This document shows, one piece after another, positions 1,371 to 52,539 of a stretch of DNA of 64,000 nt. Source of the DNA: Promethearchaeota archaeon. Lineage in GTDB: Archaea; Asgardarchaeota; Lokiarchaeia; Sigyniarchaeales; SOKP01. The stretch lies in assembly GCA_019057795.1 (NCBI GenBank), contig JAHLWS010000074.1:1-64000 (forward strand). Direction: 5' to 3'. The notes under the pieces were generated by a model, which did no database searches, was not told the DNA's origin, and saw only the letters and a program-made list of their open reading frames with translations. The first letter of the stretch is position 1. Each line of letters opens with the position of its first letter. Position numbers and translations under genes: made by a program.

Positions 1371-1454
1371 AGATTAATTTTTTACGCTATTCTATTATGT
1401 CGACTTCTTAAAAGATAAAAAATAACTTAATTACAGAATAATCTTATTATTATT

Positions 1455-1793
1455 TTGGTAGTTAACACCATGGAAAATCGAAAGGCAGTCAATGAAGTCG
1501 TGTCCTTTGCTAAAAAATGTTTTAAGCAGACGAGACCGAAATCCTTGGAAGTACGAAGAGTTAAAGACGAAAAAGTAACGGAGTTCGGATTTCCTCCCGT
1601 TGTGCTAAAGTCGAAAGCGATAGTAAAATACATCGTGTGCGCAGATTACACCGATCAGTTGAGAGTTTACTTTTTTTCTAACTCGGGACAATCTTTAGGC
1701 GCCAAAAATTACGACATACCTAATGATATAAAGAACGATATAGCGAAAAAAAGCAATTTAATAACTAAATTCCCTCGAAAACGGCGTCCTTGA
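1455..1793 (+). CDS. Small basic hypothetical protein
   Basis: 112-aa ORF; in-frame ATG at 1470 is a likely start; no recognisable motif. Confidence 0.6.
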   Translation: MVVNTMENRKAVNEVVSFAKKCFKQTRPKSLEVRRVKDEKVTEFGFPPVVLKSKAIVKYIVCADYTDQLRVYFFSNSGQSLGAKNYDIPNDIKNDIAKKSNLITKFPRKRRP

Positions 1794-3933: not shown

Positions 3934-4509
3934 GTGAATAATATCGTTTTAAGTGCTGAATTATTTCGTAACGAATTTAACTTCAGGTTGTCTTCGTTGG
4001 CGGAATCGTTTTTAAAATTTATAATAAGTAAGTACGACCTTGGAAAGCCTACGTACTTTAGTGATATTAAGAAGCATTTCGGTTATAAGACCCATTCGAT
4101 GGTCTCTAGATATTTAACGAGGTTAGAAAATCTAGACCTGATAAAAAAATCAGTCGAAAAAGTAGATAATAGGTGGAAAAAAAGAATTGAAATTAACGAG
4201 AAAGGCATAAATTATTCGCATAAACAAGGTTTAAATTGTTTTTCTAAACTGGCGAAGAAACAAATAAAAATAATTCTAAAAAAAGGTAGACTTAAGTCGT
4301 CTTATACCTACGATTTAAAGGTTATTTACGAGTACAATAAATTGATGATGAGAGAACAACCGACTCATCATAAAATGACGGTTCTTCGCGAGTTGGGACC
4401 ATCATTGGTGCTAGAACCAACGTTAAATAATATATCTGAGGGAAATCGAGACTTCTTTATTGAAATGAACGATCGTTTTCTAAAAGAGCGCTATAAAAAC
4501 GCTCGTTAG
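3934..4509 (+). CDS. Winged-helix (MarR/ArsR-like) transcriptional regulator or DNA-binding protein
   Basis: FSDIKKHFGYKTHSMVSRYLTRLENLDLIKK..RIEINEKG is a classic wHTH pattern. Confidence 0.75.
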   Translation: MNNIVLSAELFRNEFNFRLSSLAESFLKFIISKYDLGKPTYFSDIKKHFGYKTHSMVSRYLTRLENLDLIKKSVEKVDNRWKKRIEINEKGINYSHKQGLNCFSKLAKKQIKIILKKGRLKSSYTYDLKVIYEYNKLMMREQPTHHKMTVLRELGPSLVLEPTLNNISEGNRDFFIEMNDRFLKERYKNAR

Positions 4510-6652: not shown

Positions 6653-6655
6653 AAA

Positions 6656-7147: not shown

Positions 7148-10100
7148 ATGATTGAAAATAGAACTGATTCCGCGGGTTTTTCCATTGTTCAAAAGGAAGA
7201 TTTAGAGATAATTCGCAAATTGAACAGAGGAAGCTCATTAAAATTGTTAAGAATATCCCAATCTTCTCCATACCACGACATTGAAAGTAGAGAAAAATAC
7301 GAAGAAAAATTATTTCGAGAATACATGGAGAAGCAAGGATTAACTGATGGTTTTCTCGTCTCAAACAAATTGAAGGAAATTCTTGACAATTGCCATCCTT
7401 TCTTAGTGAGATTTATCGAAAACACGTATCGAGAAAAATTTAATCGATATTTCGAGGAGCATCCTGCTATTTCTGAATTATTAGATTATACAGATAGTCT
7501 TAGTTTAGTTGAGATTGCAAGCGATAAAGACAAGTGGATGAAAAGCGTAAAAAACCACGGAATTGACAGAAAGCCAAGCTTTCGCTTATTTAGTTTACTA
7601 AACAAGGTAAGTAAATCAGCGCTAATCTTTGAATATATCGAAAGGCAACATAGGGTAGACATTGATATCTTCTTTTCTAATAATTCCGATATTCAAATGT
7701 TGATTCCTCAAGGCTTTTATCTAAATTTAATAGATTTTTCAGCGCATAATAAAATTATTAATAAGAATCTCAAATTTTGGCAAATTAATGGAGGAAGAAA
7801 ACAAGCCGATGAGGATAAATGGCAAGTCACCGAGGAGGGAAGGCAAGAACTCAATACTCTTCTTAACGATATTGGAACTTCTTACAAAATTTTGAAATAC
7901 CTCGATCTTATTGATATTGCTAAATTAGGAAATGATGAAAGCGAAGCTCAAGAGGTTATCAATGCATCAGAAACTTCTTTCAATATTCTTGAAAAGCGAG
8001 AAAAAAAATCGTCTAGTTCCTATAAAATAAATAGCGATAACACAATTTTTAAGATTTTGATGATTATTGGCTTTTTACTTATTTCTATCGTAATAATTAT
8101 CGCTCCGTCTGCATTCATGTTCACTAACGATATATTAATAGCGTTTAGAATTTTTCAGGTTTTTTTAATTATAATATGCTTATTTTTATTTTATAAAGCA
8201 ATTCCTATTATAGCCGCTTTATCGAAGCATACCACTTCAGAAAGGAAGAATAGAAAGTCATTTATCTTATCTATAGAGCTTGCGTTTCATCGATGCAAAT
8301 CTACCTTATTAGTAGTTTCAGTATTCTTCGTTTTTGGTCTATTTTACGTGTATTTTGTTTACGCGCCACAACATCTTTTTGTACCGGCTATTCTCATTTT
8401 AGTAATAATTTTCCTCGCAACTTTAGGGGACCCAAAGAAAAGAGCAGCGACAGTAATCGGTATTTTTCTGGTTCTTATGCCTATGTTGTTTGTGGTTAGC
8501 TCAATGATCCAGATTGAGACGCCTTTTATGGATTATGGCAGAGTTGATCAAAGCGCTAGGATTGAATCAAGTAACGTCGATTTCTCCACGCTCGATTACT
8601 CTCAAGATTTTAACGCGCTGGAAGAGCTTTCGATCAACAGCGAGTTTGTAGTCCACGCTATAATTAGCACCGAACTTGGAGAATCGGCTATAATGAGGAC
8701 AAGAATAATCCCTGAAGTTATACCAGGCGTTTACGATCATACAAAATCATATATAACAAATTACGATTTCAAGGAATTTATTGAGAGCGGTATGCGCTTG
8801 AAGTACGATGTCTTTTCTGATTATGTAGCTGGACCTTTGATTGACGTAGATTATTACGCTCCTGTCGAGCTAGACAAGCTAAACCTGCTTCCGGGACAAT
8901 ATAGCGTTGAGTTCTCTTACGGTATTAGGACCGGCTGGGGGATGAGAAGCGCCAATCCAGTACAATACACTTTAAATTTAGAGAAAGACAGTTTAGAAAT
9001 CTTGCCTACTAATCCATTCGATTTAGGCGTTGAATACGGCGCGGTATATACCTTCGAAAACATCGGAGAGAATTCTTGGGATTCGTTTTTCGATGGAAAG
9101 TTGGTGAATTCAATTCACGAACCAATTGCAGGTAAGGAAATAGATTTATTCCTCGAGATCGACGATAAGTACGAAAAAATAGCAACCGTAGAGACAGATG
9201 CTAACGGAAACTTTTATCACCACCATAAAATCTACGGTTGGGTCGAAGAAAGGATGCTAGCAAAAATCGAATATAAAAACGGAGAAGATCCGCTCTATAA
9301 AGAATTAGTCCACGAAGAATACGCGGGAATGGAAGAACCAGTAGATGGGAATTGGTTCTTTTTCGATCAGGACGGAGACGGTTACCCAGATTGGAATTAT
9401 TCCTTAATGGATTTGCTCGGACTCTACAGATCTGGAACTATAGGATATTCGATGCCTATACAACCAGATGATTTTACGTTTGTTATAGGTAATTTTTACG
9501 GTCCATATGGGGATCTTGAATTTTCAGATTTAAGCACTTCTACCCTTCAACCAACGAAAGTTGGCGCAAATTATAAAATCGACGTGGAAATAGAATGGAG
9601 CATAAATGACTACGTTGAAAGCGTGGAATATCTTAGATGGGATTATTCTACTTCTGGCTCTCCTTCCGTTGACTTTTCCATTTGGAATTATAATCTCCAA
9701 GTTTACGAGGTTAAGTCCAGTAGTCCTTTCGCGTTGACAAGCGATTATTACGACGAAGCTAATAATTATACCGTAAAGTCTAGAATCGAAAGCACTTTGA
9801 AGGGTTCTACTTACGATCTCTATTTAGATCAGTTAAGAATTGATTACATAATAGGTGCACCTCCAGAACCCCCTCCTGTACTGTTCTTTATGGCCTTATT
9901 TGACGAAAATCAGGGTAGCACGACTAACGATGTCGTTAATGACCTTGTAGGAACCTTGTATGGAAATACCTCTTGGGTTGATGGAAAACATAACTCTTCT
10001 CTCTTTTTTGACGGTTCTGGTCAAGTAATAACAGACGAAGGAACTCCTCAGACTAATTATTTAATGCCTATACAAGAAGCAACTCCTACCGGTGATTTCT

Positions 10101-13100
10101 CTTTTACTTACGGTGATTTTATTTCGACCGCAGATATTGAATTTGATGACGGAAGCGAGACCATTATAAAATCTGATAGAATTGATAATAGTTACCACGA
10201 GATTGGCGTAGTAGTTCAATGGGGACCAGAAGGAAGCGTAGATTCTATGGATTACCTTCATTGGGCCCATCGATATGAGTGGGTCGCAACTCCAACAACA
10301 AACTTTCAGATATGGAACTACGCACTTAACGGTGGAGCAGAAGGTTGGGAAACTGTCTCGCAAAATCCTTTTTCGCTTACAAGCGATTATTACGACGAAA
10401 ATTATAAAGTTAAAGTGCGATATTACGCTCACGCAGATGGTAGGACAAGCGCAATTGATCTGTTTATTGACCAACTTAAGTTAGAATATACAACCACTAG
10501 CGGTGGAGGCGAACCGCAATACCTTGATTTTGATTATGTAGACTTTGGAGACGTGTTAGACGATGTTTTGGGACCCGGAAGCCCCAACGATCAGTTTGTT
10601 ATAACGGGCTGGGTAAATCCAAGTTCGTTTACTTCTAATCAAAGTAGTCGCGGAATTAAAAACGTTTTCTTCTCCAAGGAAAACATAGAAATTGGGATAA
10701 ATGAAAGCGGGTACCTACAAGTATATATGAACACCAATGGCGTAGAAACAACCGCATATTACGGCATTGATAACGCTATAGGAACTAACGCTTGGGTTTA
10801 CGTTGCTCTTCGCTATAATAATTCTGATGTTGACGTCCTCTTAGACGATGTGTGGTACTACGATGCTGTTGGGGCGGTAGCAGAACCTTGGAGCGGAGGG
10901 GGTTCGCTTGTAGATGGAGGCTCGCTTATTATTGGCGCCGAATTATCCGCATATTCTTGCTTTTCAGGTAAGCTAGACGATATTTCGGTGTTTAGGGAAG
11001 CCATCAGCCATTTTGATATAGAAGCTCATAAAGGAGAATTAGGCTCTTTAGAGATAATCGCTACTGTTTCTAAAGAGGATGGTCTTGGTGGGTGGGAACC
11101 AATTACTACTTCAGGAGATATGATGGACGGATATCTGAATTTTGAAATGACCTCAACGGGAAGAGAGATAAATAACACTCAATTTTACCTGTCAGATATA
11201 GAACCTGACTTGCAAAATCCAACACCTCAAGATTGGTCTTTAATTACCGAATACAGTTACGATTCTAATTATTACTCCGCAATATTAAGCAGTCGCGATA
11301 TTCCGGACGACGACTCGTGGTATTTTATTGTGCGGGCAAACGACTCGGATTCAAACGTTTTGTACGACGCGTGGGAAATCTCTGAGACCATTGCATATTT
11401 TGAAATAAATCACTTTTTAGACTCGATTAATTTTACTTATTTAGATACGGATAATAGAATCAGTCAGTATTCTCAGATTGGCGTTATTCCTTTCGATGAA
11501 TTTGAGGAAAGAATTACCCAAATGAATGTTTTTGTGAATTATTCGGGAGATATCGATTACCTTACTACCGTTTCTTATAGCGATTTATATTCTAACTATT
11601 GGTTAATTTATCTTAACGAATTATCCTCTTGGAAATCGGATCAGGGACTTCCTGACGGGGAATACGAAATTAATTTTATCATCGAGGGAAATTTCAGCTT
11701 TTACGGATTTTCAGACGATTATTACTTTAACTATACTTTAGACACTATTACTTACGATTGCTTGGGGCCTACTATGTCTCTGGTTTCGACTTCATTTTTG
11801 GAGGTGACATATGACGATACTCAAGATAGTATAATTGATATAGAAGTGACTTCTCCTGATAACGATTTTTCACACGTTAAGCTATATTATCAATATCAAG
11901 GGCCAAATCAACAATCTTGGAATTATTACGACACCTTTGAAGCAAATAATTCTATTGCCCAAGTTCCTTTCAATTTAATTAATTTAAGGGACGATAACAT
12001 TTCGATCCAGATATTAGGCTTTGATAGCGTGTTGAATAGTAAAATCTTGTACGAATCTAATTACTGGGTCGTAAAAGATATGAACAATCACATGAGTTTT
12101 ACCTTAGAAGGAATCGAGCACGATAAATTGTACGGTTTGGAGGAAAACAAAAGCATCAGGTTAGACGCTAAAATCCAACCTTTCGATAACGACATCACGC
12201 GAGTTGTCGTAGGCACCAATTACGAGACTTTTACCATTTTTAATCCTACCTCGGAAAACGACCATATATATTTTGAAGACGATATTTATCTTAATTCAAC
12301 CTATTACGGCGTTTTTGGTGCGGATTTTGTATATATTCCGATAAACGTAAAATTATACCAGGACGATATATTAATCTCCTCAAAAGAAATAGTAATTACC
12401 GTAATTGAAAATACTTTTGAAGACCAAGTTCAAATTTCAAATATTGTCATAACTACTGATCCTCAAAATAACGTTTTTATGTCTTTTATTTCAGGACTAA
12501 ACGCGTATAACAATTCCCATTCGATCCCTTACGTTATTAGCGGTGCATTCCCTGTCGTAAAGTTATACAACCCCGACGGGATTTTAATTCAAACGATTGC
12601 TTTAAGAGCAAATAACGATACCTACGGGATTGAAACTTATAACACGGGAGCAATAGAAATTAAGAATAATCGATTTACCGTCCCCTTACCAGTTCCCGCA
12701 TCGGGAGAATTGTGTTCCATAGGCGTCGTAAATGTGAACGGAACTGTTTATCCATTTACCTATTTTATTAACAACGACGAACTCTTAATAACGCTATCGA
12801 CCGAGACATCTCTCGATGGAATATACGGCGCTACAGGAGGAGATATTACTATAACTTACGGCGTTTCGTTATCTAACTTACTTGAAAATCAATTTATTGG
12901 AACCTTTGATTTGCAAACACTACCCCAGAATAATTACACTGTTATTGGAGAGTTTTACGAGCTCTCTGGAGATGTGATTACCTATCAAGCATTGGAAGTA
13001 CTCTCCGTTGATTATGATGGACCGATTATGTTTAAACAGTTTGGACACGAAGGTTCTGTTGATTCCTATATTAATCCGGAAGGAGGCTCGATATCGTTTA

Positions 13101-16100
13101 TCGTTAACGACTTTTCGGGAGTTCTTAGCTACGATTTTAACGTTTCAATTAACGGATACTGGGTAATATCAGGCGATTTATTTACATTTTATTTCAACGA
13201 TCCTTCCATTGCAGAAGGATTGACCGATATAGAACTAAATTGTAGCGACGTTAATGGATACTGGAACTTGTTAGCGTTTACGCTATTTATAGATAGGACT
13301 GAGCCTTCATTCGTTTCGGTTGTAAACGATTTAGAGACCTTTAACGCGCTATACTCCGTCATTGTCGAGATTGGTGAGGCATCTACATCTTACGAATTAT
13401 ATCTAACGTGCGTGAACTTTGTATCGGGTATTACATATTCCAATTTAGAGTATACTTTAATCGAAACTGATGCGAATATTTGGCAATTTTTAATGGATAC
13501 CGCTCAATTACCTGACGGGAGGTATAACGTATGCATTACAGTTATTGATGAGGCAGGAAACATAAATCAATATACTTTAGAAGATAGATATTTTGACAAC
13601 TCGCCTCCTGAAATCGAAGATATTTTGGATGTTGTATATGTAAATAGCGATATAAATTATAATACAACTCTTTCCGATCTGGCGTATTTCAACGATGGAA
13701 AGAATATAACCGTTGCGGCAACGGATATAGTGTTTGATGAGTTCGATTGGGCTAATGTAAACCCAACTTTAGGAACTCAAAGCGGCGTAGATTCTATTTT
13801 TCTTTTCTTTACCAATCCATTATCAACTCAAAGACTTGTTATAGAAGGTCAGTTAAATTTTGAAAAACTGACCTATAAAATAGTTGGCTTTGGCAATGAG
13901 ACTGTAAATTACGATACATCTTTAATAAAAGCAATTCAATCAATTACTATTGGAGGATATTCCGTCGATAGATTTGTAATTTTAATCGAAGAAAACGACT
14001 TAATATTACAGATAGACGAACTTTATAGGTATTTATTGTCTTCAAGTAAAACCGATGAAATTTACGCCGAGTTTTTCCAAGCTGAGACTACCGGAGTACC
14101 ATTAGTATTTGATACCGAAAAATTAATTTGGAAGTTAGAAAACTTTAACATTTCGAGTTATCTAAATATCTCGGATGGACAACAATTCCTCTTTTGGTTT
14201 GAGATTAAGGACGGTATGTATACTGCGACAGCAGGAGAAAGGGATGCCAATACAATAATCTCAAGAAAATATCGAGGTATTTACGATAATTTGATTCAGA
14301 AGAATGGAGGTTCCTTGTATGAATGGAGTCTAGGCACAGATGCCCAAGAAAACGGAATTATTGTTTTCGGAACGGATGCTAATATAGATGCAACAATTCA
14401 GTTTAACGGAGCAATGATTCAAGAAAGAATTGCCGGAGAGAGCGACATTGACAAGATTTTCATTTACGGTTCCGAGACGGGCGCTAACTGGGAATTTATA
14501 GGAAGAGCCTATTTCTCGGGAGAAAATATGTTGTGGAATTATTATTGGAATTACGATCTCTTAGGCACAATCCCGCCCCAAAACTACATGTTAAACGCGT
14601 TCTTTTTTGATAAAGCGGGAAATTTCATCAACGAATCTATTAGTATAAAAATTTACGATTTTGCAGATATTGAACTTATAACCGACCTATTGTTCGGAGA
14701 AATTTTCGAGTTTGACGCAAATAAGCAAACTAACATTCAACAAATTGCCGGAACTATAGCAAATTACACGGGTCAAACTAACTTATGGGAGATAATAGCG
14801 GAATATTATAATCCCACTGAAAAGATATGGATTCCGCTCCAGACCGATGCTGCGGCGATCGATGCTGGCGATTATTCCATAATTTGGGATATAAATCAAG
14901 ACGAGTTTATGGACTACATGTACAATTTTACGTACGAATACTTACCCCTTCAAGTAGCACCCGTTACCGGCTTTACAATGTGGGGCTCTTGGGGCACATT
15001 CACAATTGATGGCGAATGGCAACCAATCGTATTAGTACAAGATGGACTCTATGTCGATATTATAATATATACTTTCAACGATACAATTGGTTGGGAAATT
15101 AATAGTACCCTAAGTGGCGAAAATATCTTCACTTACATCGATAACCAATTATTCAGACTCCACGATATCGATAACGACGGTATTTTCGAGATTATCCGCG
15201 TTACATCTTCTCAGGTCGATGTAATCTATCTCGATCAAGGAGTTTGGAAGATTAAAGAGGATGTTGCTCAAATTAGCGACTATTACTATCGTTCGTTTGA
15301 TCTTTTCTTCGACGATGATATAAGCGCGTCTATGATGGTTGCTGTTCAAGAAGACCAATCAGGGCAGCTATTTTTATGGAAATACCAATTTAATTCTACT
15401 TTCTCATTAATTAAGAGTTTAAGCGTTGTTGCTCCCCAAAACTTTATTCCGACCTCAATTAAAATGCTAACAGAGTTTTCGTCCACCTCAAGTAAGGTCA
15501 TCTTAGTAGGTGGCTTAATGGAAGGCTCGTATCATTCTCAATTGTTTGAATACGATTTTAATTTTAATTTACGCAATATTATTGCCGAAGTACTTCTCGG
15601 CAAGATTTCGATCATCGAATATGATTTTATAAACGAAGCGTATACAATTCTACTCGGATTGGAAAGGTTATCGATCGGGAAAATGGACGCCATCGTATCG
15701 CTCACGTATAGCGAAGCTTCCAATTCGTGGAACGCCTTTGAACTCTCGGGATTTGACGAGATTAGATTTAACCTATTAGATTTACTTGTAATTTCCGAAA
15801 TAAACGCCAAAAAACTCATAATCGCTTCCGATTCAGGTCTTTTCGAAACCAAGATTTCTTACGTGGTGGACAAGAGTCTAATTACGAGTCCTGTCTGTTT
15901 TGCAAGCGTTACCGTTTCAAAATATCAGTTACAACAATATATGTCGGGATACGTGTTAAAATTAGAAGAAGAATCCATTAGTTCGATCACTAAAATATCG
16001 TACAAAGAAAACTTACAATGGAAAACTTTGTCTTCTAATCAATACAGATTTTATACAAATTATATTTATATGGTTTTAACAGGTATTTCGTGGAATAATT

Positions 16101-19100
16101 TAGACTTGATTAAAGTGGACTACTCGTTTTTGTCCTATTATGACGAGCAAGTTACATCTATTGACCCTTCTTTAAACGAGGTTGAGGGAACTCCTGACCG
16201 CTCTGGTACGTCCGCTTTTGCTAAGTTCTACGGAAGTTCCGCGCTCCCCTTGTTATGGCTTAACCCCGCCACCTCGTACTTCGATATGAACGCAAATTGG
16301 CTAAGCCTTCCAAATGGAATGACTTATAATCAAAAACCAGTGATCTCCGGTCTTGGAAGCACTGCGTTTTATCCCACGATCTCGACAGTTGGATGGGGTG
16401 CCCCAAATCATTATTACGGTCCCGAATATACCAATATGCCCGAGCTTGACAATAAATTGATAAGTTACGGCGATGGATACGATAACGGATTTTTGGCACA
16501 AAATTTAACCGGAAGGGAAAGTTCAATAGATGATTATAAAGAAGACGAGTTTGCCGGTAGGTTTGAGAGTCAAAGCGATTACATAGATCGGGTCTTAATT
16601 AGCAACCCATTTATAGGAGAGAGCTATAATTTTCCAGATATGTACTTTAGCGGCGTTCACGATACAACTGGAATTTATCACGAATACGATGGGTCTCAAA
16701 AAGTTTTGGTTAGAACCGAACTTACCGATTATAATTTAAATATTGGTGGTATCCTCCAACCAGATCTGTCTCAGAGCGGTCTCTCTATTCAAGGTTCGCT
16801 CCCTGATTCACTCCCTAGTTCTATCTATAAGGATTTTGATTTATTAACTCTTGAAGAACTTGAGAGTTCTTTAGTTAATTGGACCGAATATGTTTCAATA
16901 AACATGGATTCTCCAGGAATTTATGGCGTTGAGTTGACAAGCAAGCTTCCGCTCGTTGATAGAGACGGGTTAGAGTCGATTCAGGTGGCTTTTGACGCTT
17001 CGATCGTTTCAAGTTTTGGAGGCGACGAATATCCACTTTCGTTGCAAATGTACGATTTTATCGATGGAGATTGGGAATCTATTCTTATTACCGACAATTA
17101 CCCTTTCTGGGAGTGGGAGCGCGCATTTGATACGGACTTCGGTGGTTTCAGACCAGGATGGAGAACTGTTCCTAACTCAATGGATAACATGCAAACAATC
17201 AGCTTTGGAGATAACTTCCCTCACACGCTTGTAAGCGGTGATTTTGAGTTTGATAGCACTATTATAGATGGAGGCAACTTTTTGGATAACGATTATAACG
17301 GTGCTACTTTCCAAAGAAACAATTATTATAGTTCTGATAATCAGTTTATATTTTACGATGCTATCACGCACGAATCAAATAGATATCAAATCAATAACAT
17401 AATTATAAATCCTAATAATTTTTATATTCACGAATCTGATGATTTTCCTGATCCAGACCCCGCATTATTTTCCTTAATAAGCGATGAAGATGTTTTTTAT
17501 GCAAATTACATAAACAATGATAATGAAATCAAGATTCGCTTAATAGTTGACAAAGAATCACCCGTAAACGATGAATTTTTCTGTATTGGAAACATGGGTG
17601 TATTCGTTCATACCGATCCCAACTATTTGAATTATGATAATTTTGATTCGAATGTATACGGTTCGGAATCTTCTACGTATCACGTATCCGATAAGATTGA
17701 TTTTGATGTTAACGGTTTAAATCTGTACGGAAATAGCGCCTTTAATTTTAAAGATAGTAGTTATACCAAATACAAGTTTTATGAATCGTTTGAGGGTGGT
17801 ACGCCTTGGAGTTTAAATAGGGTTTCCGAAACAACCTTCCAAGTGTCGTCTACTCCTTCCGATGACGCTTATTCTCTTTTATTTGACGACAGAAATTGGG
17901 GTTCAGAAAACCTTTTGAATGTAGAATATGACAACCCATCAGTGCAGTACTGGACTTGGATTAAGGATAATATTCCTTATTTATACGACGGTTATTATAG
18001 CGATTCAATCCTAACTTTGTACCGACCAACAAACACGGGAAGTGGAGAATTTAGAGTTTACACGGGCGGAGATTTTGACGAGAGCAAGATTAATTGGAAT
18101 AGCGCCCCACCATTACAAGAGTATATCGACTCTTACGCTTTTGGTCAGCAAACGGGTTCGATACAGATTACTTTAGGAGAGCCTTATCCGTATTACGTTC
18201 TCAAACCGATTGACGGAGAAATTTCGTTCGCAAGCTCGGAAAGCTCGTTATATCCAAAACCTCAGTTTGACCATTACTTAACAAAAAGTTATTACGGAAA
18301 CGGAATTACTTACATGCAAACAAACGCGCAGGAAATGCTTTATCTAAAAAGCCCTCTATATGAAGAGGCGATAACGCTAATTTCAGGCGATGTTATTAGA
18401 ATAAAATGTCAAGCAAAAACTTCCAGTGAAATTAAATTAAATCTGTATTATCAGGGAGGAGAACTACCAGAAAAATATATCATTATAAACGGCGGAAACG
18501 ACAATTTTGGCACTCAAATAATTGAAATTAATAACGATAATCCAAATCCTGTAACTTTCGATCGACTTGAGTTTTCTGGAGAATTTAACGCCCAAGATTA
18601 CTTTATTGTAGAAGAAATGACTATTTCTGATCCGACCGACGTAAATCAACTTATTTCGACAGTTTCCAAATACAATTTTATCGACCAAGAAGTTGAGTTA
18701 ATTAATTACAACGAGGGCACTTACCTTGTAGGTAGCGAAGTCGAAGGACACATCGAGGACGACCAATATTGGCAAATTGACGCGGAATTCGTTAAACTTC
18801 AAGATTATCGTATGGAGATAAACATTCCATTTGCAGGGACAGCTTCCCTTGACGATATAGACAATTTAAAAATCAGAATGAAAGCTACTTCTTCGATTAA
18901 CTTAGATCAATTCGTTTTTGAATATTCTACCCCTCAAGGCTATGAAGAACTAGTTCCAGATATTCAAGGAAATGTGGTCACGCTTACTATTTACGATAAA
19001 GACTTTTATAAATTATACGATATTTCTACTCAAGAGTTTTCAATAAAGTTAAAAATACGCGACAACGCTCAACAGACTTCCACTTTTGATTTACATATCG

Positions 19101-22100
19101 ACAGTTTGCACGCAAATGGATTTGCTCAATGGACGGCTACTCACGATCTCTATAGATTAGAAGTCAATTTTAAGCGAACTCATGCCGATTATCCAGACAA
19201 CGAAAAAATCTATTTCATGTTAAACGACCATATAGGTTTTGAAATTGAGGATTGGCGATTAGAGGAAACCGCTAATAACATTGTTGTAGTAGGATACGAT
19301 TATTCTACTAAGATGTGGGAAGCCTATCTTAACGGAGACCTAATTTGGCAGCAGCAAGATTTAGCGCCTTTGAAAATTTCACCCCGAATTAAAACTTCCT
19401 ATACCCATGAACAAAATCACGGGATTTGTATAACCTCGATAGATTCTCAATTTTACAAGCGTATTCGAGACGAGCGAGATTTCGAGACTTATAAATCGTT
19501 GATAGCTCTGTACGACGAGGGGTACGTAAATTCCAGAGATATTACCTACGATAGTTTTCTTACATCGCCTCAGAATACTTTTGCTCATTTATCCTCTAAT
19601 ATTAACGTTATTTATTCGTTTAACGACGAGATGGAAAACAACAACATTTTTAGCTCGCAATTAATCAATCTTGACGTCTCTTCTTCTCAAGACGACGCTT
19701 TTGACGACGTTAACGGATACGACTACAAGGAAGTGGGCATAATTCCCGACCAAATAAGTGAATTAGCTAAGTCTATCGTGGACGGAACTACAGGGTCAGG
19801 ATATTCTCCCGGATACGATCCAGTGACGGGAGCGTTAGTCGGTGATAACGATGATAAATACGGGCCCGTATATGGTACTGGTGATTATGGTACTTATACT
19901 TATCCGGACGATTGGCACGATTCTACGGCGTTCTCCGGTACCGATAATTACGGCGTTAGATTATTTGAAAATTTTATACAAGACATCGTTTATCTCAATA
20001 GCCCCCCTTGGGGAGTAGAAGACGGTACATATAACGATATTTTGTATACCAGGGTAAATAATGGAGAATTCTATAGAGCAAGAAGTACATCTATTGCCCA
20101 TTTGGGACAACAAATTGCAATGCGATTCGATTTCCAAAAAGAATTAGGGGGTATTAATTACAATATCGGTGCTCGTATCGAGACGAGCGACCCTAGTATC
20201 TCAGGTTCGCTTAGAGTGAACGGTGGCGCAATTGCTTCGGGACCCGTTATACAACTTGGTTTAGCTGGAGATAACACGGGTTCAGCAACTATTATAACAT
20301 ATACTGCTGGAGATTTGGATCCTTTCTATGTAGATATTTATTATTTTGAGTTAAAAGCCGATCCTCAAGCAGGTGGTTCATATGGCGTGACGGAACACTC
20401 TGGTTGGAATAATGCCGTAGATGGTTTTGTCCGCAATGGTGGCTATGCTAGAAGCGAGAGCACATTCGCACAAACATACGATTATTATTATTTTGATCTA
20501 ATTTCAACTGATCCTTATAATTTCGGGAGACCCCATTCCGTATATCTTGATATTAATATGTATTATTATTTCGAACCTCGTCAAGGTGCCGAACATTGTT
20601 ATATAGAAGCTTATAATTGGTTCTCACCTGGATGGGAGAATATACAAACCGTTTCCAGACAAGCCAGTTATCAGTACTTTCATAAGGCTATCAATAATGT
20701 ATATATATCGAATAATGGAAATGTTGATATTCGTATTAATGCTTATAGGCGAGACGATTCTGGTTGGTATTCTCCTAGATTTGAGTTGGAAGTAGATATG
20801 ATTAGAATGGATTGGGCCATAGAATGGGAATATTTACCTAGCTCATGGTTCGCATTCGATTTAATTCATCCAGACGGTTCGTTTAACGCGACAAACGATT
20901 ATTACCTTTTCTTTGAAGGGGATGCCAATTACGATTCCGAATTAAGGCTCAATTCTGACGATATTTTTACCTTTAACGGAGAAGATTTAAAATTTGACGA
21001 ATATTTCTATAATTTACAATCGGGCTATGAGTTTAAAATTTGGTTTACTGATGGAAACGATCGCAATCAGTGCGGTAGATATATCAATTCGGATTATCTC
21101 TATCTTTATTGGATAAATCAGAACGTTGATGTAACTATTAATAATCCAGGATTAATCCATTTAGATGATTCACTTTCAGATGATGAGACCCATAAATATA
21201 CAGAGCCGATTAGCTCGGGAGTTTACGACGACCCAATTTTCGGCAAAAACACGGTTCAATTTACCTTAGAAAATTATTTTTCTACTCCAACTTTTGGAAG
21301 GGGTGAATTAGCTGCCGAAACAATTTACAGCGATTTAACATTAAACGACTTTGATTTCACGTTCGACGTATACGGTATCGGTGACCAAGAAGGTTATCCC
21401 GATCCTACAAAAGTGGAAGGGGGAGATCCCTTAAAATACGATCCTGAAGTGCTTCAAGACTCTACATTTTACGATAATAGCAGGTTTAAACTGTCCGCCA
21501 TTGACGACATTCAGATTCCTCTGCTAACCCCAATTGAATTGTATTTTGGCGATGTTAACCCTGAAGATTTTGTTGATATGGATTTAAAGCTTGTTTTCGA
21601 TTACGACCTCTCTCTAAACGGACGGTTAGATCCTAACGCGGAATGGTTGTGGAGATATCGATTCCTTTATTATAACTACGCGACAGAGACTTGGGAGGAC
21701 GTTAACACTATTCTTCAAGCAGAAAATTTTGGAACTACGAGAACAGTTTGGAATTTAGGAGGCACCCATACTTTAAATCCTATACCTTACCTTCAGCAAC
21801 CCAACTTGAATACCTTTATTCCGATAAAGAATTCAAACGATATTCATTTAAATCCGATAACAATTGACAATCTTAACGAGGATACTATAAAAGACGGCGT
21901 TATTAAGTTGGCTCTCATTTCCTACGTTCTTCCAAGTAATGGAAGTTCGTTCTCGTTTGATCGCGCTGATCCGTTTACTCCCATTAGCGTGAGTCAAAGT
22001 ATTGACCTTGTTGAATCGTTATTTATCGGAGAATCCGTTCAGTTGATGCATCCTGATTCAAGCATAGAAACCTCTTTGGAACTTGACTCCGGGACTTATC

Positions 22101-37100: not shown

Positions 37101-40100
37101 AAGGCACAGAATTTTCAATCGTTTACAAGCTAAAATTTGATTTCGAATCAAAAAGTTTCGGAAAGATTACTTTAGGTTATACCAATAATTACAATGAAAG
37201 TTCGATCGAGCTTCAATTACCGGACGGATTCTTACCGGATAGCGATGAAGCCGTAGCTCCTATGTTTACTCGATTTTCAGATAATTTTACGGGCGATGGA
37301 ACCCAAACTCAGTTTATCATGAGCTATGGACTTAGCGGAGTATCTCAATGGGACGGAAATTTCGTTATATATAACGAGGAAGAACTAATCTCCCAATTTG
37401 GAGCCTTTGATGAAGGAGTTTCTTCAGGACATCCTACTATCACTTTTACTGTAAAACCTCCTCCTGCCCAATCAAAGATTAACGTCACTTACGGAGTTAA
37501 ATCTCAATACGATCTTTCTTACGGATTCCAGAAAATCAATAAGTCTTATAGCGATTCAATAAGGCTAATGAGTAACGATGACACATCACCTCAAATAATT
37601 GACGAAGCTGATAGCGGACTGTCCACCCGAGTTCTTGACAATTCGTCTTTGTATATTTCATTGGATAATTCGGAAGAAAAAACAACTCTTAAATTATTAC
37701 AGGTACCTTTATTGTTTGCTCCTGAACTTAATCTTACTTTTACTTTTGATCAAATAGTACTGGATTATATCGAATCTTTTGATAACGATTTTAACAACCT
37801 TACTATCGAATTTAAATATATTACGAAGGATGGATATTACGAATTTTATTCCGACCCAAAAATAATCCCTCTGAATTATTCCGAAATTTCGCCTGATATT
37901 ATAGGTAATAGTTATTCTATTCTGTATAACAAAGACCTTCAGCCAATTTACGACATGGTTGGGACTGATAGTATCGATATTGAAATAACGCTATATCAAG
38001 CGGGAAATAGTGTTAATTACGCTCCATATATAATTTTAGAAGAATTTGAATATCTATCCGATACCCACATTGTTGAGATGTACGATAGAATGCCTCGTGA
38101 TTATTACGGAAACATGGATATAGACGCCGTAATTAATACGCCTCATTACTTCCAAGTATTCTCGAAACCATTAGTCGATTGTGAGTGGGGAGATTCGCCG
38201 TTTAATCTAATAGACGGAAGCGAAGTTACGGTAGGGCTTAAAGGCTTGCCTAACTCTTCCTTAGTTTCTTTAGATTACGATGGAGAGACTTATGGCATAG
38301 ACTATTGGGGTTCGGAGAAAACGCTTCCAGTAAATCTTGAAAATTTCTTTATGATCCCTAACTTGGGAATGTATACAGATACTTACAACATAGAAGAGAC
38401 TTCTTATCAAGACGGATATTTAGACCTCTATTACGGCTCAGGTACGGAAATCGATGGAGAGAAGCTTTATACCTCGACAATCTATATGGATTACGAAAGT
38501 AGTCCAGTCGCCGATTATCGTTCGAGTATTTTAGATAATACTCCAACTTCATGGGCAACAACATTTGATTTTGCTGATAAATTTTTAACCACTTATGAAA
38601 TGGAAGTAGAAGGACGCGTATTCTATCATCAAGTATTTGATTTAGATACGGATATAAACACCACTTCCGAGATGAACGATATCTTCCCTGATTACAATAC
38701 AAATATCTATTTCGGTCTGCAATTACCTTCCGACCTTGATATTGATGAGATTAGAGAGATCGGTTTACCCTATTCGTACGCGTTATCCATTCAAGGATTT
38801 CCAGTCGGAGATTATAAAGACGAATATTGTTTCGCACTCCCAACGGATAGCGGAGATTTCAATCCGACCACCGACCCATATCTACTCGAGAGTGATACGG
38901 AATACGCTTTAGAATTTGACGAATACGGAGCGCCATACATTCTATTCTTTAAACCGGTTGGAGATTTAAGCACTTATACGGACGCTCAAAATAAGATCAT
39001 GATCGATTATTGGGCAAATCACGAATTTATCGATAATCGCGATTATTACATCCACGAAAACCCAATAGACACATTTATTTCGCAGATCGAATGGGATTAC
39101 AGCTACGTAGATACTGACAATTTTAACCTCCACCCCGACTTTACATACGATACCAGCTTTACCGTGAATTATTACGCCTTAGAATGGGAAATTTTCAACG
39201 AGGACTATATTAAAGACGGCGACGATATATTTACCTTCCAACAGAGAGAATTTTACAACATTTCTGTGTTATATACGGGAGATACAAGCACCGATGAATT
39301 TAGCGTACAATATATCGTACCCGAGGGTCAATATTTAGAAGATCATATAATCTTCCCAACTATCTATGCATTGGCTCAGATTGATGACGATGAGGAAACA
39401 ATGAGAGTAATTGAAATTTACAATAGTTTGTTGCAAAATTATATTTCTCAAAATGCTCCTGATTCGTACAATTATACCGTTGATTTCGCCGAAATTGAAA
39501 CTTATATTAATACCTATTTCCCAAGCTATCAATTGGTTGAAAATTCTTTTATGTATATAACCACCGAATATAACTCTACTCTACTGCGATATCCAATGGG
39601 CCATACGCCGTTCAATTACGACTATTTAGGACCAGATCATTACGCCTACCATATCGCTCTATATATCAACGGTGAGTTTATCGCATATTCAAACGAAACC
39701 TTATTTAACGATTACGTGTTAAAAGTTGAAGATAATTATATTTATTTCAATAATAAGTCAAGAGGTCAAGCAGGTTATATCGACCCCGATAGTGAAATTC
39801 AACTAACTTATAAATTTAAACTTCAACCTGGATTACTTGATAGAAAACATTTTATGATAATTACCTATCCGTGGACGAATGTTTTTGAAACTGTTTTTGA
39901 TCCAGTCTTAGGTGACGAACAATTAACTTATAGAGAAAAATATAGAAAATTAAGCGGAGGCTCCATAATTACGCCTTTTGAATATAGCCTTTCTATTAAT
40001 ACGAAATATACCCTTTACTTAAGTTATCGCTTAAATCAGAGAGAATATTACGAAGAACGGTTTGAGATAAAATCCGAGTACTATGACAGCGCTGAAGGCG

Positions 40101-43100
40101 GCTACGTGTATAAATTTATTTCCCAAGAGCTCGATAATTACATCGATGTGCTTGAGGATGAAAAAGGGGATTCTGTTAACGTCTTTTATTTCGATGCTCA
40201 AGGCAAAATGATATTCTTAGACGCTTCTCATTACAAAGTTACTATTGGTTCGAGACAAATAGTTATTAAAAACGATGGAAACGAATTAGTAGCTTCACAC
40301 GGAGAATTTTACGTGTCCTTTATCTCGGACTACAACGATAAAGAACTTTTAAATTATCGCTTTTCTTACGACCCCGCAACGGATATAACAGCAACCTTAG
40401 ATGTAAATTATTGGGATGTTATTGACGCAGAGGGTATAGGCGTTATTCCAAATTTAGACGCGCCTTACTTCATGAACGAAGGAGAGACCACTCTGCAAAA
40501 CGTTGTGTGTCAAGCTTCTCAAATTGCTGCGTATCTTAGCGAAGGAACCAAATTAGAATTTAATTTAGAAGCAGAATTACAGGGATACGACCAACAATTG
40601 CTTGATGGAATACGCGATGGCAACTATTCAGCGCTCTATATTGATACAAATATTAAAAACATAGATAGTTTAGATAATCTTACTATTGAACTCTACGACT
40701 CTTCAGGTATAATGTCTGAATTTTCTCAGAACATGACCAGAGATGAGTTGATAATGTACGACTACAACATCAAAATTAACTTGCCAACAGATACAAATAC
40801 GCTAAAAAAGATTAGACTCGTTCCATTTTTCAGATCAGATAACGAATATAACGCGGATAATACTATAGGCATTAGCAGAATTCAAGCAATGGTCTGGGAT
40901 AATGAGCTTGTTTCCTTCATGGAAGACGATCAAGAGTATATGCACGTGAATTTAGAGCACGATTTAAAGACAGATATAAGCGGATACAAATTAGCTTACA
41001 TTTATAACGATAAATTACAATACCTCGCCTACCCTGACGGTGTTTCGATTACATATACCAAGGATATGGATATATACACTTTACATATTCCAAGCGTCTA
41101 TCTTAACCCTGACACGAACGAAACTACGAGATTTCTGGAAGGGCAAGAAATTGTTTTGCGATACAATTCGCCCGTAAAGAAAGGCATAGCTGTCGGTATT
41201 GGTAAATTATACTTTGAGAACAAAGGATATAATTACGACTCGCATCCAGATATTCCTAAAGCAGAATTATTACTGGTTAACGCTAATTCTTCGGATACCA
41301 ACACTTACGCTTACTCCGAATTTATTAACGATTATTATTATCAAGCCCCAATACAGATAACTCCGTTTGATACCGAATATAACGGCAAATATAAAGCTAT
41401 AAAGATCGATTTGAATATATCCGCTTTATTAGAAGCAGAAGGTCGTTTTGAACTAGATCTCAGTCATATCGTCTTTTCGGTACCGAATCCTTCTTACGAA
41501 TTAACCATTAGTGAAGTACTTATCTTGGAAGAATCGTACAAACCAAACTTACAATATGGAAGTATGGACGAACGGGTATGGCAATATACCGAGGTCGAGA
41601 TGTTTACCGCAAGCGCTAATCCGGAAGAGGATTCTTATCAATTAGCCCTAGAAAACGCCCCGTTATTCTATCCTGATACGGAATGGTTAGATTATCTCAA
41701 TATTTTTGACGAGGATGGCAACTACTATACAGCAGGAATCACAGGAGACGACCATCAATTACATTTCGAACCTTCAACTAACACGTTTACTTGGAACCCA
41801 TCGTTTAACCAGTACCCCGAATATTTCGGCATGGAATTCGAAGAGCCGTTATCGATTGAGCCTAATAAAACGCTTTATTTCGGATACGTCACCAATACCT
41901 CTTGGGCAGAACCGATCCTAATCGAAGCGGAGAACATTGATCTCGATTCTATTCGCGTAATTTACGATTATAACTATCTACTGAAACCGGAGTTTTACGA
42001 TTGGTACGCTACATTGAACCTTAGTGCCCAACATTCCTACGAGAATATCGCGTATTCCTTTAAAGAAGAATCCGAATATAAGGTTGTTCAGTATTATTAC
42101 GAGGAGTTTACCGTATATAGCGACGCTTCTCAATACACCCATACGTTTGATATAGGCGGGCTTTCTTTTGAAAACGATTTTGTCAACTTAAGCGTGTTTA
42201 AAGTGGTTGGTTTAACTCCCACTTTAGAAACCGAAATTTTGACAAATAACGACAATTTTTCGATTAAATTTAATGCAAATACGAAAGAATTAAATATAAC
42301 AGATTTGAACTTAGAAAACGGTTTATTGAATGTTTTTGATCAAATTACTGCTATTTTAAATTATTCATACGGTCCAATTTCTAGCTTTTCCGAGATTTAT
42401 TTATCGCCCGAATTTAACATTACTTACTTAACCGATCCGGAAGAAACCTTCTTTAGCAATGTCGATATCGATTATAACTATCGATCAAAATCGGGCACAG
42501 CTCTATTTGGAGAAGGTTCTGCAACCATTAATAGCGACGATACTTCATTTGTTCCTATTGATTTCTGTCGAAATCCCGATATGAGCACCGATTATCAATT
42601 AAACGGCTACGGTTCGGAGTTATTTGATAATTTTGAGATTTACCAAGACGAAAGCTCTATAATCTACGTAGCAGACATAGATATGGACGGGGAACCTGAC
42701 TATAAGCACACGATCGATGTAGACAAAGACGGAAAGATCGATGTTATTAGATACGGCCTTGACGATCCGCAGGGTTCCGGTGAGATTTATTGGCATACGG
42801 TTATTCAAGATTTTGAAAGTCGAGAAATTAAAGTAAAGCGAGAATTAGAAGAAGAGAAAAGAACCGAATGGTTTGACATAGATGACCGCGCATTTGCCTA
42901 TTACGATTTTAATGTTTTGAAATTACTATCAATTGTACTTGGATTACCTTTGTTATCGTATCATATTGCCAAAATGATGCTTCCCGACGTAGACTATTGG
43001 GCTCAAAAATCTATTCAGCAATTAGTCCAGAAACAGGAGTACGTAAAATCTTCCTTCTACAGCGTGACGATTGATAACGACAGGGATGGCTACACCGATT

Positions 43101-46100
43101 CTCAGATAAATTACGAGAAAACAGACGTTAACATATATTACGATATTAGCGAATATAAGAAAACAATTATTGCTGCCAAGCATCAAGATATCGTTACCTA
43201 TTTAGGAGAGTACATTGCCAAAAGTATAAGTTCCTTATTCACGGGCTCCCGAGACGATCCGATTTTTAACGACCAGTTAACCGAAGCCCATCTCGACTCT
43301 TCCGATTTTGGCTCTTGTAATTTATATACCCAGATGAATGCAGCTGTTTTGAACGCGACATACAGAAAATTCTCTGAATATACCCTCTCGTCTTATATCG
43401 ATACACTTGAGCGCTCCACATTGACCGTAATCGGCTGGAACGAAGGAGAGATCGAAGAGCAAAGGATTTATACGGACGATTTTGAGAACGGAGAGATTGA
43501 AAATGCGGACGACTTTTTCTCGAGCTTATCGGCAGAGCATTCGGTCACCGACATTGACACGGGACAAGAAGTTACCGTTGATTTCGACTCAGAATTTCCA
43601 TACACTCATCCAGCTAATATTAGTTGGGATTGCGAAACATGGGGTCCCGATAACGTTCCTATTAAATACGACTCCTTGCAGGTGATAGGAGAAGATTATT
43701 ATTATGCTACAAATAAATTCGAAAAAGAAATTATTATTAGAATTCCGAATCGATTCTCGTTATACAACGATTTTGGTAAAGTTAGTAAGTTCAGCGTGGA
43801 AGACGGCGGTTGGGTTGAGTTTAAAGTTAAAGGTATGCTTATAACCCCTCCCGATGGTCAAGTATATTATACTTCCGATGTCGATTCCTTTGTTTCCGAT
43901 TCAGCAAAAGTTAGCGGGTTTTACTTCTACGTGGATTCTGATTTGAATGGATTTTTTGAAACAGTTTATATTCTAAACGATTACTATACTTTGGATGCTT
44001 CAGGTACTCCAGTATATACCGTTATGTCAATAGGAATGAATTACGATGGTATTCACGATTTTGCACCCTACGAACGATTATACGACAGAGAGCTCGTAGT
44101 CTCTAATTTCGAGACGTTGACGCAAGAATCCGTCATGTTTGGAAGCGATTGGATTTACAATTTCAGGCACTTAAAGGACGAAGATCTTTTGAAAGAAACC
44201 GAATCTAAATTGGAAGAAAACAACTTAAAACCAAAAGACCAAATATTTGAGATTTACAAACTCGTACAAATGAGCGAGCAAAACAGCGAATTTTCCGAGT
44301 TATTCTACGAAATTAGGCACAAGACTTATTCAACCGCGTGGGAGCAATATAAAGAGCAATTAATAGGAGATATTGCCGAACAAGTGTTCATGTCGGTCAC
44401 TGCCTCCCTTCTTAGCGCGACGGTGGAAGCCATCCTTACCGGAGCCACATTTGGTTTCGGATGGCCAGCTGCTAAAGCTGCTGCGACTTTAACTTATATG
44501 GGAGTCTATACTTTAATGACTAAATTTTACGTCGACATAGACCTCGCCAAAGCAGAAGCTGAAAAGCGCTCTCAATCGTTCTACTCGGTTTCGAGCGAGA
44601 CTCGTGAGCCTACTTCCCTTAACGAAAAAAACGCCTTGGATAGGGTTCTCGGCGATAGCATGGCGGCAGCACTTATAGGACATCCTGGCGGATATTACAC
44701 CGAGGTGAGTGGAGGAGAACCGGGTAATATGTATACAGGTCAGCTACTAGTAAGTCCTCCCAATCTTTTACGCATGCTTTATTCGTTTGAAGGCTTTTTA
44801 GATTTACTTTGGGAAAACCTCTGGAGCATGGGAGAATCGGACCCCGATGTTTACGCCGCTCTCGATTTTGACGACATTAATTTGGATTACTTTTTACTCA
44901 CTAGCGAATTACCCTCTTACAATCAGAACCCCTATTACACCTACGAGAACGCGGACGGTATTTTTGATTTGTACAACATGTATGCCCTAAACACCTTAGG
45001 CTACCTCGAAACTCAAGTAAGTCAAGCTTCTAACGGGCAGTACGACGCAATTCGAGCGACCTGCATAGACGGAAGACCACAATACGAGTTTATTAATAGC
45101 ACCTTGTACCAAGCAGTAAGACCGCAAAGCGTGTTATATAGACCGATCGTGTTAAGCCAAGAAAGGTACGACCAACTACAACCAGCGCCCGGTAGTTTAG
45201 TAGTAAAAGCCCGATGTAAAGATTATAGCAACACTATCGGAATAGACGCTTACGCAATGGGCGATGTGGAGCGCGAGGTGTACGCGGCAAAAGTTCCGCT
45301 CAACGACAACGGTTTTGAGTACCCTATTCGACACATTTCAATTGACGTGGTAAAGTACAACATTTACACCGGCTTCAGTTATTTTGTTAAGGGTCTTATC
45401 GTGAACGAGTCGGATTATTCTATCGATCTTGGCAACCTCTATTTCGCGAAATCCATCGAAGCGATCGTATCGGAAAAACATAGCGGGTTCGAAGACTTTT
45501 TAAGCTACGCGTTAGCACACGAAATAATAGAATCGAAAATTTACTTTAACATTCACATAGTTTTTGACGTGTTTATCCCCGACACCACTGAAGAGACAAG
45601 CAGGTTGGCTTTAGCCCAAGCAACATCCCATACAATCATGGATTATTTTAATCAGTACGTTTTTGCGGAAGTTTCGGCTAATTCTATTTCAGAGATTGCC
45701 TACACAGAGACTATGACTTTCTGGTCTACTTTAATCAGCGCTCCCCTCGTGTATTTCGGCTCCTGGGCTATAAAAGGCACGGATAAGATGATGGGCGAGG
45801 CATCAGTAAAGTTAATTAAAGCGGGGGAAATAACTAGAGGACAAGCGATTAAACAAATGCTACTTAAATCATTTGCCGGCATGGCTCTAAGCCCCATTAA
45901 AGAAGTATTTGAAGAAATCATTAAAGACGGGTTTACTGAAGCGTTAGCAGAGAATCTCATCGACATGGCGGGAGGAACGGACGACTTAGGTTTCTGGGTC
46001 TCTTCCTTTATTACTTCCAGAAGAGAAACTACGGGAGCGTTAGGACAATTAGCGCTCGGAGACGCCAGCGTAGCTTTCGGGGACGCCAACCTAAAGACAA

Positions 46101-48451: not shown

Positions 48452-48457
48452 TACTCC

Positions 48458-48513: not shown

Positions 48514-49434
48514 ATGTCGGAAGAACATTATTATTGGAACGAAATATTTTTTGAAAAATGCGGCATTGTATTATCAGAATATCAAAACGATAGAAACATG
48601 CTAAATAAAGCGATTTTAGAGAGACATTTAGACGATCTTATTAATCTTGCAAACAGGTCAGGCGATATATCCGCCCATCAGACGCTTACGGTTTTAATCC
48701 TTCAAGTAGGCGCGAAATTGCCGAACGATTTAAAAGAGAAAGTCTTAGAATCTTTAGAGTGGGAAAACGACAACAAAAGATATCACTGGTCTTCTTTCGT
48801 TGTTAACGTTAGAAAAGTTTATTTAGAAGATTTCAGGCAAAAAATTCTTAGTTACAGAAATAATAACATATCTTTTTTAATTAATCTAAGAAGAATCCAC
48901 GACGATAAGAAATTAGAAAAGACATTAATAGGCTTAGAACAGCTTAACTCTTTCTCAAGGTTAAGAACATTCGAAAAGATAGATTATATAAATTTGGATA
49001 GTTGTAGATTGGCCGACATGCCCGAAGAAGTATTTAGGTTTTCAAATCTTTCTGCTTTAAGCTTAGATAATAATTTCCTAACCACATTGCCGGACTCAAT
49101 AATAAATTTACATAATTTAAAAAAATTGTATTTAATAAACAATAAGATTAAAATCCTTCCATCTAGTATAGGAAGTTTAACTTCATTGGAATCGATTTAT
49201 TTGTCCTATAATCAGATAGAAAGTTTACCCTCTTCACTTGGAAATCTTAAGAATCTTAGATCGTTATATTTAAATAATAACAATTTAAAGTCAATTCCAG
49301 ATACATTCAGAACTTTAAATTTGAATATCTTTAATTTGCGAAATAATCGTATAAAAGATATTCCTGTTTTTTTAAAGGAGAGTTCTAAATATAAAAAAGT
49401 ATTTTCTACTAAAGCTTTCTTAAACAAAGAATAA
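48514..49434 (+). CDS. Leucine-rich repeat protein with an N-terminal helical domain (candidate immunity protein)
   Basis: About 6 LRRs of 23 aa (LxxLxLxxNxLxxLPxSIxxL) in the C-terminal half; no signal peptide; 62 nt downstream of the giant gene. Confidence 0.85.
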   Translation: MSEEHYYWNEIFFEKCGIVLSEYQNDRNMLNKAILERHLDDLINLANRSGDISAHQTLTVLILQVGAKLPNDLKEKVLESLEWENDNKRYHWSSFVVNVRKVYLEDFRQKILSYRNNNISFLINLRRIHDDKKLEKTLIGLEQLNSFSRLRTFEKIDYINLDSCRLADMPEEVFRFSNLSALSLDNNFLTTLPDSIINLHNLKKLYLINNKIKILPSSIGSLTSLESIYLSYNQIESLPSSLGNLKNLRSLYLNNNNLKSIPDTFRTLNLNIFNLRNNRIKDIPVFLKESSKYKKVFSTKAFLNKE

Positions 49435-52538: not shown

Positions 52539-52539
52539 G

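Follow-up and report, generated by a model that had tools for sequence, protein, structure and literature searches.

The giant gene and its neighborhood

The window analyzed here is a 64,000-nt stretch of contig C74 from a genome of the Lokiarchaeia, and it is dominated by a single giant gene that is followed, after 62 bases, by a gene for an LRR protein. The features of the locus are listed in Table 1, together with two related loci of the same genome (G000). Upstream of the giant lie what may be the remnant of a mobile-element block, a small gene of HTH type, and a gene for a surface protein. Homologs of the latter (32–37%) occur upstream of nine other giants, and small HTH-like genes occupy the same position in relatives. 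The remnant block is 48–60% identical to one upstream of two giants of genome G127, in which ParB_N is intact and preceded by a primase-like ORF. The first 618 positions of the window match the end of contig C55 at 96% identity and occupy the place expected for the N-terminal half of ParB, and an RNase III-like gene (1957–2643, minus strand) is located inside the upstream block. Beyond the LRR gene, positions 49498–62153 encode a PAS histidine kinase, an ECF S-component, a PLP enzyme with an HTH tail, a ZIP transporter, and a metallophosphoesterase.

Table 1. Features of the giant locus and of two related loci in the same genome (window positions unless a contig is named).
Feature	Location	Strand	Basis or remark
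Putative mobile-element block remnant	717..1793	+	ParB-like C-terminal half 717-1286; 112-aa gene 1455-1793
Small HTH-type gene	3934..4509	+	weak Pfam HTH_5, E 0.04
Surface protein, ~600 aa	4778..6628	+	NCBIfam Loki-CTERM
Giant gene	7148..48451	+	13,767 aa; open frame, relatives, unitigs, dN/dS
N-terminal charged head, aa 1-299	7148..8044	+	K+R 14.7%; sequons 3 vs 2.8 expected
Membrane anchor, five helices, aa ~300-455	8045..8512	+	hydropathy 2.4-3.1 at 300, 329, 386, 409, 436
Acidic body, LamG and Ig-like domains, insertable modules	8513..42611	+	Pfam; colinearity with relatives
Likely gene-conversion tract	39250..39750	+	92% identity to C77 paralog
Conserved pre-tip module, aa ~11823-13170	42612..46639	+	87% DNA / 88% aa identity to C66:22359-26362
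Tip linker, aa 13171-13415	46658..47392	+	common to G117, G108, G143, G057 tips
GIY-YIG (URI) nuclease domain, aa 13416-13529	47393..47734	+	model pLDDT 86; I-TevI superposition
Helix-turn-helix array, last pair AraC-like	47747..48406	+	structural match to AraC domains
Candidate immunity gene, helical N-domain and LRRs	48514..49434	+	306 aa; Pfam LRR_8 1e-27
Orphan cassette (L071)	G000:C66:22283-29309		pre-tip, HNH-motif tip, 286-aa LRR
Second family giant (L072, L073, L090)	G000:C77:67769-102305		11,117 aa from first Met

Reading frame, assembly, and selection

The frame of the giant gene contains no N, and the odds of its being free of stops by chance are ~1e-425 from base composition; each of the five remaining frames contains 723 to 1292 stops. 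The encoded protein is acidic and rich in D, S, I, L, Y, E, and N. A search for tandem DNA repeats within the gene found none, and a repeat artefact was rejected; modules of ~200 aa do recur in diverged form at aa 6346–6955 and 7336–7939.

The assembly was checked with Logan contigs against positions 30,200–50,199, the tested half of the gene region. Two unitigs of run X1 agree with the window with zero differences: one of 30,008 nt over positions 30200–39290 and one of 3,160 nt over 46108–49267, the latter bridging the pre-tip, tip, and LRR gene. Run X2, from another sample of the same study, yields identical pieces, although either run may include the source sample of the assembly. None of the unitigs covers the gene end to end, and their ends coincide with words of 31–65 nt that are common to two paralogs. 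Read depth is even. Runs X3 and X7, with small shares, contain diverged relatives and were excluded from habitat claims; there was no RNA run among the sequencing runs listed for the gene.

Colinear giants of 12,455–20,615 aa from six other genomes cover 90.5% of the chain at 28–62% identity. Because dS is saturated against other genomes, dN/dS could be measured only against the orphan copy on C66, the sole close copy, where it is 0.03–0.27 and indicates purifying selection. One tract stands out for its similarity to the C77 paralog against a background of ~70% identity, and it likely reflects gene conversion with that paralog.

These results confirm the observation, and in part the interpretation, of the sequence-only reading, which had proposed an uninterrupted, single-chain giant of 41.3 kb under purifying selection, not a repeat artefact, and possibly an independent giant-gene family. 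Such a giant-gene family does exist, with colinear relatives in one Lokiarchaeia family, 53 of whose 134 genomes carry the pre-tip. Chimeric joins had been named as the danger, and the unitigs of two runs match without difference, none spanning the whole gene. The alternative of a fusion of tandem giants was not supported, as the locus has a single gene instead. At 13,767 aa the window giant is not the largest: relatives span ~11,000–20,600 aa, and one (G085:C13; L087–L089, L046) has 20,619 codons. What that reading overlooked was the main point, an exchangeable nuclease tip with a cognate LRR gene.

Architecture of the giant protein

The head lacks a signal peptide, aligns from aa 41 with the giant of G085, and is predicted to be cytoplasmic. 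It is followed by the membrane anchor and by a body of ~11,400 aa with DxDxDG Ca-type motifs and Pfam matches to Laminin_G_3 (E 3e-9 to 3e-24), Big_13, and a Sialidase-like CBM. The body is colinear with those of relatives except where modules have been gained or lost, and it would be extracellular.

Between body and tip is the conserved pre-tip, in which DxDxDG motifs occur with moderately hydrophobic, Gly/Ala-rich helices (hydropathy 1.6–1.9 versus 2.4–3.1 in the N-terminal anchor). Searching 1.8 billion representatives with a profile retrieved 302 pre-tip clusters at 50% identity. The profile matched no entry in Pfam, NCBIfam, or PDB sequences and no known translocation domain, and the ESM Atlas gave no usable match for the pre-tip or the tip linker. 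Profile searches with Pfam, NCBIfam, and PDB likewise found no T5SS, T6SS, T7SS, or PVC markers and no HINT or caspase-like modules in the window giant, nor was a processing peptidase found in it. On sequence grounds, the scaffold appears unrelated to known delivery systems. The pre-tip may serve both as a delivery module and as a handle for recombination.

A GIY-YIG nuclease fold at the tip

The final 600 residues of the giant are basic. The linker that opens the tip is shared with tips of four other genomes, yet those tips end in different domains. A model of the tip built from an alignment (a single-sequence fold gave a pLDDT of only 39) superposes with VIA-align, by its residues 13416–13529, on I-TevI (1ln0; Z 9.8, rmsd 2.3, 90 of 92 residues) and on T4 EndoII (Z 6.9), while a Foldseek search with the model returned no match at E 0.001. 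Pfam GIY-YIG was matched in 10 of 32 relatives. The catalytic-motif positions are occupied by Y13420, G13440, R13449, E13509, and N13526, and the Arg, Glu, and Asn positions are conserved. With respect to the Tox-URI1 motif (Y, YxG, R, [RK]xxE, N), the Y, R, RxxE, and N are present and conserved; the second GIY-YIG motif reads x-Y-G in the window subfamily and Y-x-G in some relatives. Residues 250–369 of the model, in the helix-turn-helix array, match AraC DNA-binding domains with Z ~10. From its modeled fold and residues, the GIY-YIG domain would be expected to cut DNA. The tip is in-frame with the giant and the junction is bridged by one unitig, so it is not a stand-alone nuclease gene.

Exchange of tips and partner genes

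The clearest view of tip exchange comes from the same genome, where the C66 orphan begins abruptly at the pre-tip and is 88–89% identical to the window giant over 1,348 aa. Beyond the pre-tip, it turns to an unrelated tip with an HNH motif and to an LRR gene of its own. The C77 giant, which has 61% identity to the window giant across their last 5,000 common residues, also bears an HNH-motif tip and has two tandem partner genes of 113 aa. Its 5′ end is apparently split from a 122-aa ORF upstream.

A pre-tip tree of 32 rows, from which ten loci were excluded as too short or too distant and which was midpoint-rooted merely for drawing, contains six sister pairs with 100/100 support that bear different tips. 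Three of the five members of the clade containing the window giant carry the C66-type tip, so the GIY-YIG tip is probably a newcomer there. The tips represent 26 classes in 42 loci and 50 in a wider set of 71. Pfam domains in relatives' tips include a toxin deaminase (PF14424, E 3e-6), LAGLIDADG, and an S24-like peptidase, and reading by eye suggests HNH-, PD-(D/E)xK-, and EndoU-like motifs. Tips of the window type occur at five other loci (60–72% identical), all of them truncated, with differing 5′ cut points and unrelated surroundings.

Partner genes follow the tips. For instance, the window-type tip is accompanied by a 75–84% identical LRR gene at all five other loci, and in three genomes the C66-type tip is paired with an LRR gene of 65% identity. 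Even the distant GIY-YIG tips of loci L033 and L124 have partners that share the same N-terminal domain. An LRR neighbor is located beside 21 of 42 tips versus <1% of ORFs, and a small-protein family beside six of the 42. Some partner genes are convergent with the tip, not co-oriented. The genome also holds tip-less partners, 60–72% identical to the partners of other genomes' tips, as well as several decayed tip–partner pairs. Judging from these alignments, tip and partner are exchanged as a unit through recombination in the pre-tip.

The 306-aa LRR protein has neither a signal peptide nor a TM segment and is a candidate immunity partner of the tip. Complex prediction for tip and LRR protein gave a score of 0.01, which is uninformative either way, and a promoter and terminator scan at the tip–LRR junction stayed at chance level. 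Positions 49114–49421 of the window share 87% DNA identity with C68:51127–51434, a lone LRR fragment.

Several tips carry additional modules. At L043 (9081–11864), a clear ubiquitin domain (Pfam E 1e-7) is found ahead of the enzyme part, and other tips have weaker ubiquitin- or ThiS-like linkers. The idea that tips are released at a ubiquitin-like linker common to them was set aside, given an hhalign probability of 14% elsewhere, no PDB hit, and no such linker in the window giant. At L052 (5324–6853), L049, and L050, an S24/S26-like peptidase precedes the nuclease and could possibly act as a self-release module.

Sequon loss and membrane side

The 42 tips contain one N-glycosylation sequon versus 301 expected, and a second set, 80 tips retrieved by profile search, contains five versus 440; the two sets may overlap, and their related members are not independent samples. 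In the tips, the non-glycosylated motif N-P-S/T and six shifted motifs occur as often as expected or more often. Among soluble ORFs of the genome, sequons stand at 0.94 of expectation, partner proteins have 86 versus 93 expected, and free-standing GIY-YIG relatives without an LRR have 44 versus 51. Those with an LRR have none versus 15.6 expected. STT3/AglB is encoded in the genome. Such near absence beside normal controls implies that the tip meets the oligosaccharyltransferase and must stay bare; statistically, and at the level of the family, the tips appear to be exported yet kept free of glycans. Evidence for export is indirect and consists of the N-terminal membrane helices and this controlled sequon purge. 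The simplest reason for a bare tip would be passage through another membrane.

The body behaves differently, and the claim that it has many sequons is borne out only in parts of it. Over its whole length the count is at chance (119 observed, 117 expected), with enrichment at aa 9001–11920 (44 versus 27) and in eight giants pooled (378 versus 246). The body also includes a stretch of 1,336 aa without a sequon (aa 3244–4580; 16877–20887), roughly double the longest such gap in its relatives. The sequon signal is therefore strong at the level of the family, not for any one copy.

Distribution and the question of a mobile element

The named relatives are Promethearchaeota/Lokiarchaeia MAGs. The pre-tip was found in 55 of 161 genomes of the class, 53 of 134 of the family, and 2 of 239 of other classes. 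This patchiness, and neighboring genes that change from locus to locus, mean that the giant is not a conserved core gene, the outcome that would have spoken against the sequence-only reading. One 11,809-aa member (G237:C57; L146–L148), with the same upstream surface gene, comes from a genome placed in a different Asgard class and represents either transfer or mis-binning (genome contamination 8%).

The suggested connection with mobile elements survives in part. The truncated ParB-like gene and its synteny with the primase-like/ParB block suggest a mobile-element origin of the giant, and the locus resembles an integrated element that has decayed. Membership among the aloposons was not supported: the locus has one gene, a tRNA search of contig C74 came up empty whether or not introns were allowed for, and positions 1–7147 gave no match to ParA/MinD, the contig starting 7 kb upstream of the giant. 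A tRNA is located just after the LRR gene in G127, and directly adjoins one of 47 giant loci overall. The DNA examined showed neither an integrase nor a transfer ATPase. Two giant segments match 2 of the 239 genomes outside the class, and no match is named Heimdallarchaeum.

Free-standing GIY-YIG+HTH genes occur elsewhere (L108, L110–L113; L122, L125, L126; G000:C21:95932–97677). These are very variable in length, have the same conserved neighbors across several genomes, and lack an LRR. Such a pool of homing-endonuclease-like genes may be a source of tips.

Proposed mode of action and competing explanations

Taken together, the giant and its LRR partner probably constitute a contact-delivered, membrane-tethered polymorphic toxin–immunity system. 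The N-terminal helix bundle would anchor the chain, with the long acidic LamG/Ig body threaded out to a neighboring cell, where lectin-like modules may bind surface glycans. The tip, purged of sequons, is on statistical grounds exported past the N-glycosylation machinery, and the pre-tip helices would then enter the membrane of the target cell and let the glycan-free tip cross it. Inside, the HTH repeats would keep the GIY-YIG domain on the DNA, and this domain is predicted to cut the target chromosome; the co-inherited LRR protein would block the tip in the producing cell and in its kin. Targets are likely related Lokiarchaeia, since the genome keeps partners for tips that it lacks. Tip and partner are swapped together via the pre-tip, with orphan cassettes and partners accumulating.

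The same mechanics could serve another beneficiary. It is unlikely, though conceivable, that the giant is the spreading device of a mobile element that delivers a homing-type, sequence-specific nuclease to neighbors, with the LRR protein as addiction antidote; the device would then, with equally low probability, kill or cut cells without the element and favor its spread. Consistent with this are the ParB-like, primase-like, and small genes upstream in relatives, the tRNA in G127, insertion into a different neighborhood each time, the resemblance of tips to homing endonucleases (I-TevI fold with HTH array, LAGLIDADG), and the related GIY-YIG genes free-standing in many genomes. Against it, the upstream block is truncated here, integrase and transfer ATPase were not seen, the tRNA is exceptional among loci, and deaminase and RNase-like tips suit killing, not homing. 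It is doubtful that an Asgard mobile element threads homing-type nucleases into archaeal neighbors via a surface protein of 11,000–20,600 aa, cutting or killing antidote-less kin, and just as questionable that the giant would be, for such an element, a protein-delivery machine made of one chain and without kinship to known secretion systems.

Alternatively, the giant could be a surface sensor whose C-terminal helices span its own membrane and whose LRR-restrained tip acts inside, in regulation or in suicide upon attack. Hydrophobic helices between body and tip, a basic tip with transcription-factor-like HTH pairs, and a cytoplasmic partner fit this switch. It is nonetheless quite improbable, because a cytoplasmic tip needs no avoidance of sequons, and the tips, unlike cytoplasmic proteins, are purged ~100- to 300-fold. 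The pre-tip helices are also weak compared with the anchor, and rampant tip exchange with orphan partners is ill-suited to a regulator. The only surviving variant has the tip leave its own cell by export and then re-enter it. Tip export and the LamG/Ig body would agree as well with a giant adhesin whose surface nuclease digests extracellular DNA, which is very unlikely given that it leaves unexplained the tip-tracking cytoplasmic partner, ~50 tip classes, the hydrophobic pre-tip, and the near-total loss of sequons. Finally, a chimera of paralogs might have created the long frame or swapped the tip. Two paralogs do share identical 31–65-nt words and no single piece spans the gene; the same unitigs in two runs, one of them across pre-tip, tip, and LRR gene, the even depth, and full-length relatives colinear over 90.5% of the chain make this extremely improbable. 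At worst, tips would have been exchanged between giant and orphan, still leaving a gene for ~13,800 aa.

If the toxin–immunity reading is correct, these Asgard relatives of eukaryotes engage in contact-dependent combat, ~40% of genomes in one Lokiarchaeia family carry the means for it, and a single-chain delivery machine, its fold unknown, moves large domains across an archaeal membrane. Some of the largest proteins of archaea would thereby gain a function, and ~50 nuclease- or deaminase-partner pairs would become testable in laboratory hosts. The sequon purge could also be a general, alignment-free marker of domains exported and then re-imported in glycosylating prokaryotes. Polymorphic toxins are a hallmark of bacteria, and none were found described for Asgard archaea in literature searches. 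The searches, which reached few subscription papers, also found no published description of the giant family.

Comparison with known systems

Huge archaeal proteins with Laminin_G_3 domains have been surveyed, and the accessible part of that survey lists 12 Lokiarchaeota entries with a function “not understood” (PMC11573180). The window giant resembles these in its domains; that part of the survey reports neither tip polymorphism nor a partner gene.

Aloposons are defined by tandem giants of 3,000–6,000 aa (Otus/Ephialtes) with a tRNA downstream (Wu et al. 2022, PMC8813620) and four genes upstream, including a MinD/ParA ATPase (PMC8813620), and they also encode ParB-like proteins (PMC11529989). 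Shared features are an Asgard giant at variable sites, a partition-type gene upstream, and, in one relative, a downstream tRNA. In contrast, the window locus has one gene of 13.8k aa and neither the tRNA nor a detected ParA/MinD, and its family is almost confined to one Lokiarchaeia family; a toxin–immunity layout is not reported for aloposons. By the published definition (PMC8813620), the giant is set apart from them on gene number, size, and tRNA.

With I-TevI, the tip shares the catalytic fold, the Arg/Glu/Asn catalytic positions, and C-terminal DNA-binding modules. It differs in being fused to a presumably exported giant, LRR-paired, and sequon-free, and AraC-like HTH pairs replace the I-TevI binding domain.

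Bacterial polymorphic toxins combine a constant body, a variable C-terminal enzyme, and toxin-then-immunity order (Zhang et al. 2012, PMC3482391); such systems are rare in archaea (PMC3482391), and their nuclease toxins lack arrays of DNA-binding domains (Zhang et al., PMC3482391). Unlike these toxins, the giants have no T5SS, T6SS, Rhs, or filamentous-haemagglutinin parts but a membrane anchor of their own, reach 11,000–20,600 aa, carry a pre-tip of no known family, show the sequon purge, and belong to an Asgard host. Their tips are 500–1,800 aa with HTH arrays, and in the window tip, unlike Tox-URI1, such an array follows the nuclease. The body, enzyme, and gene order are nevertheless like those of CdiA/CdiI and Rhs (PMC3482391), and the likeness extends to standalone cassettes, orphan immunity genes, URI, HNH, REase, and deaminase tips, and LRR partners (Tox-URI1, Imm-LRR). 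A constant body, exchanged tips, partners that track them, and orphan partners thus correspond to the layout defined for polymorphic toxins (PMC3482391).
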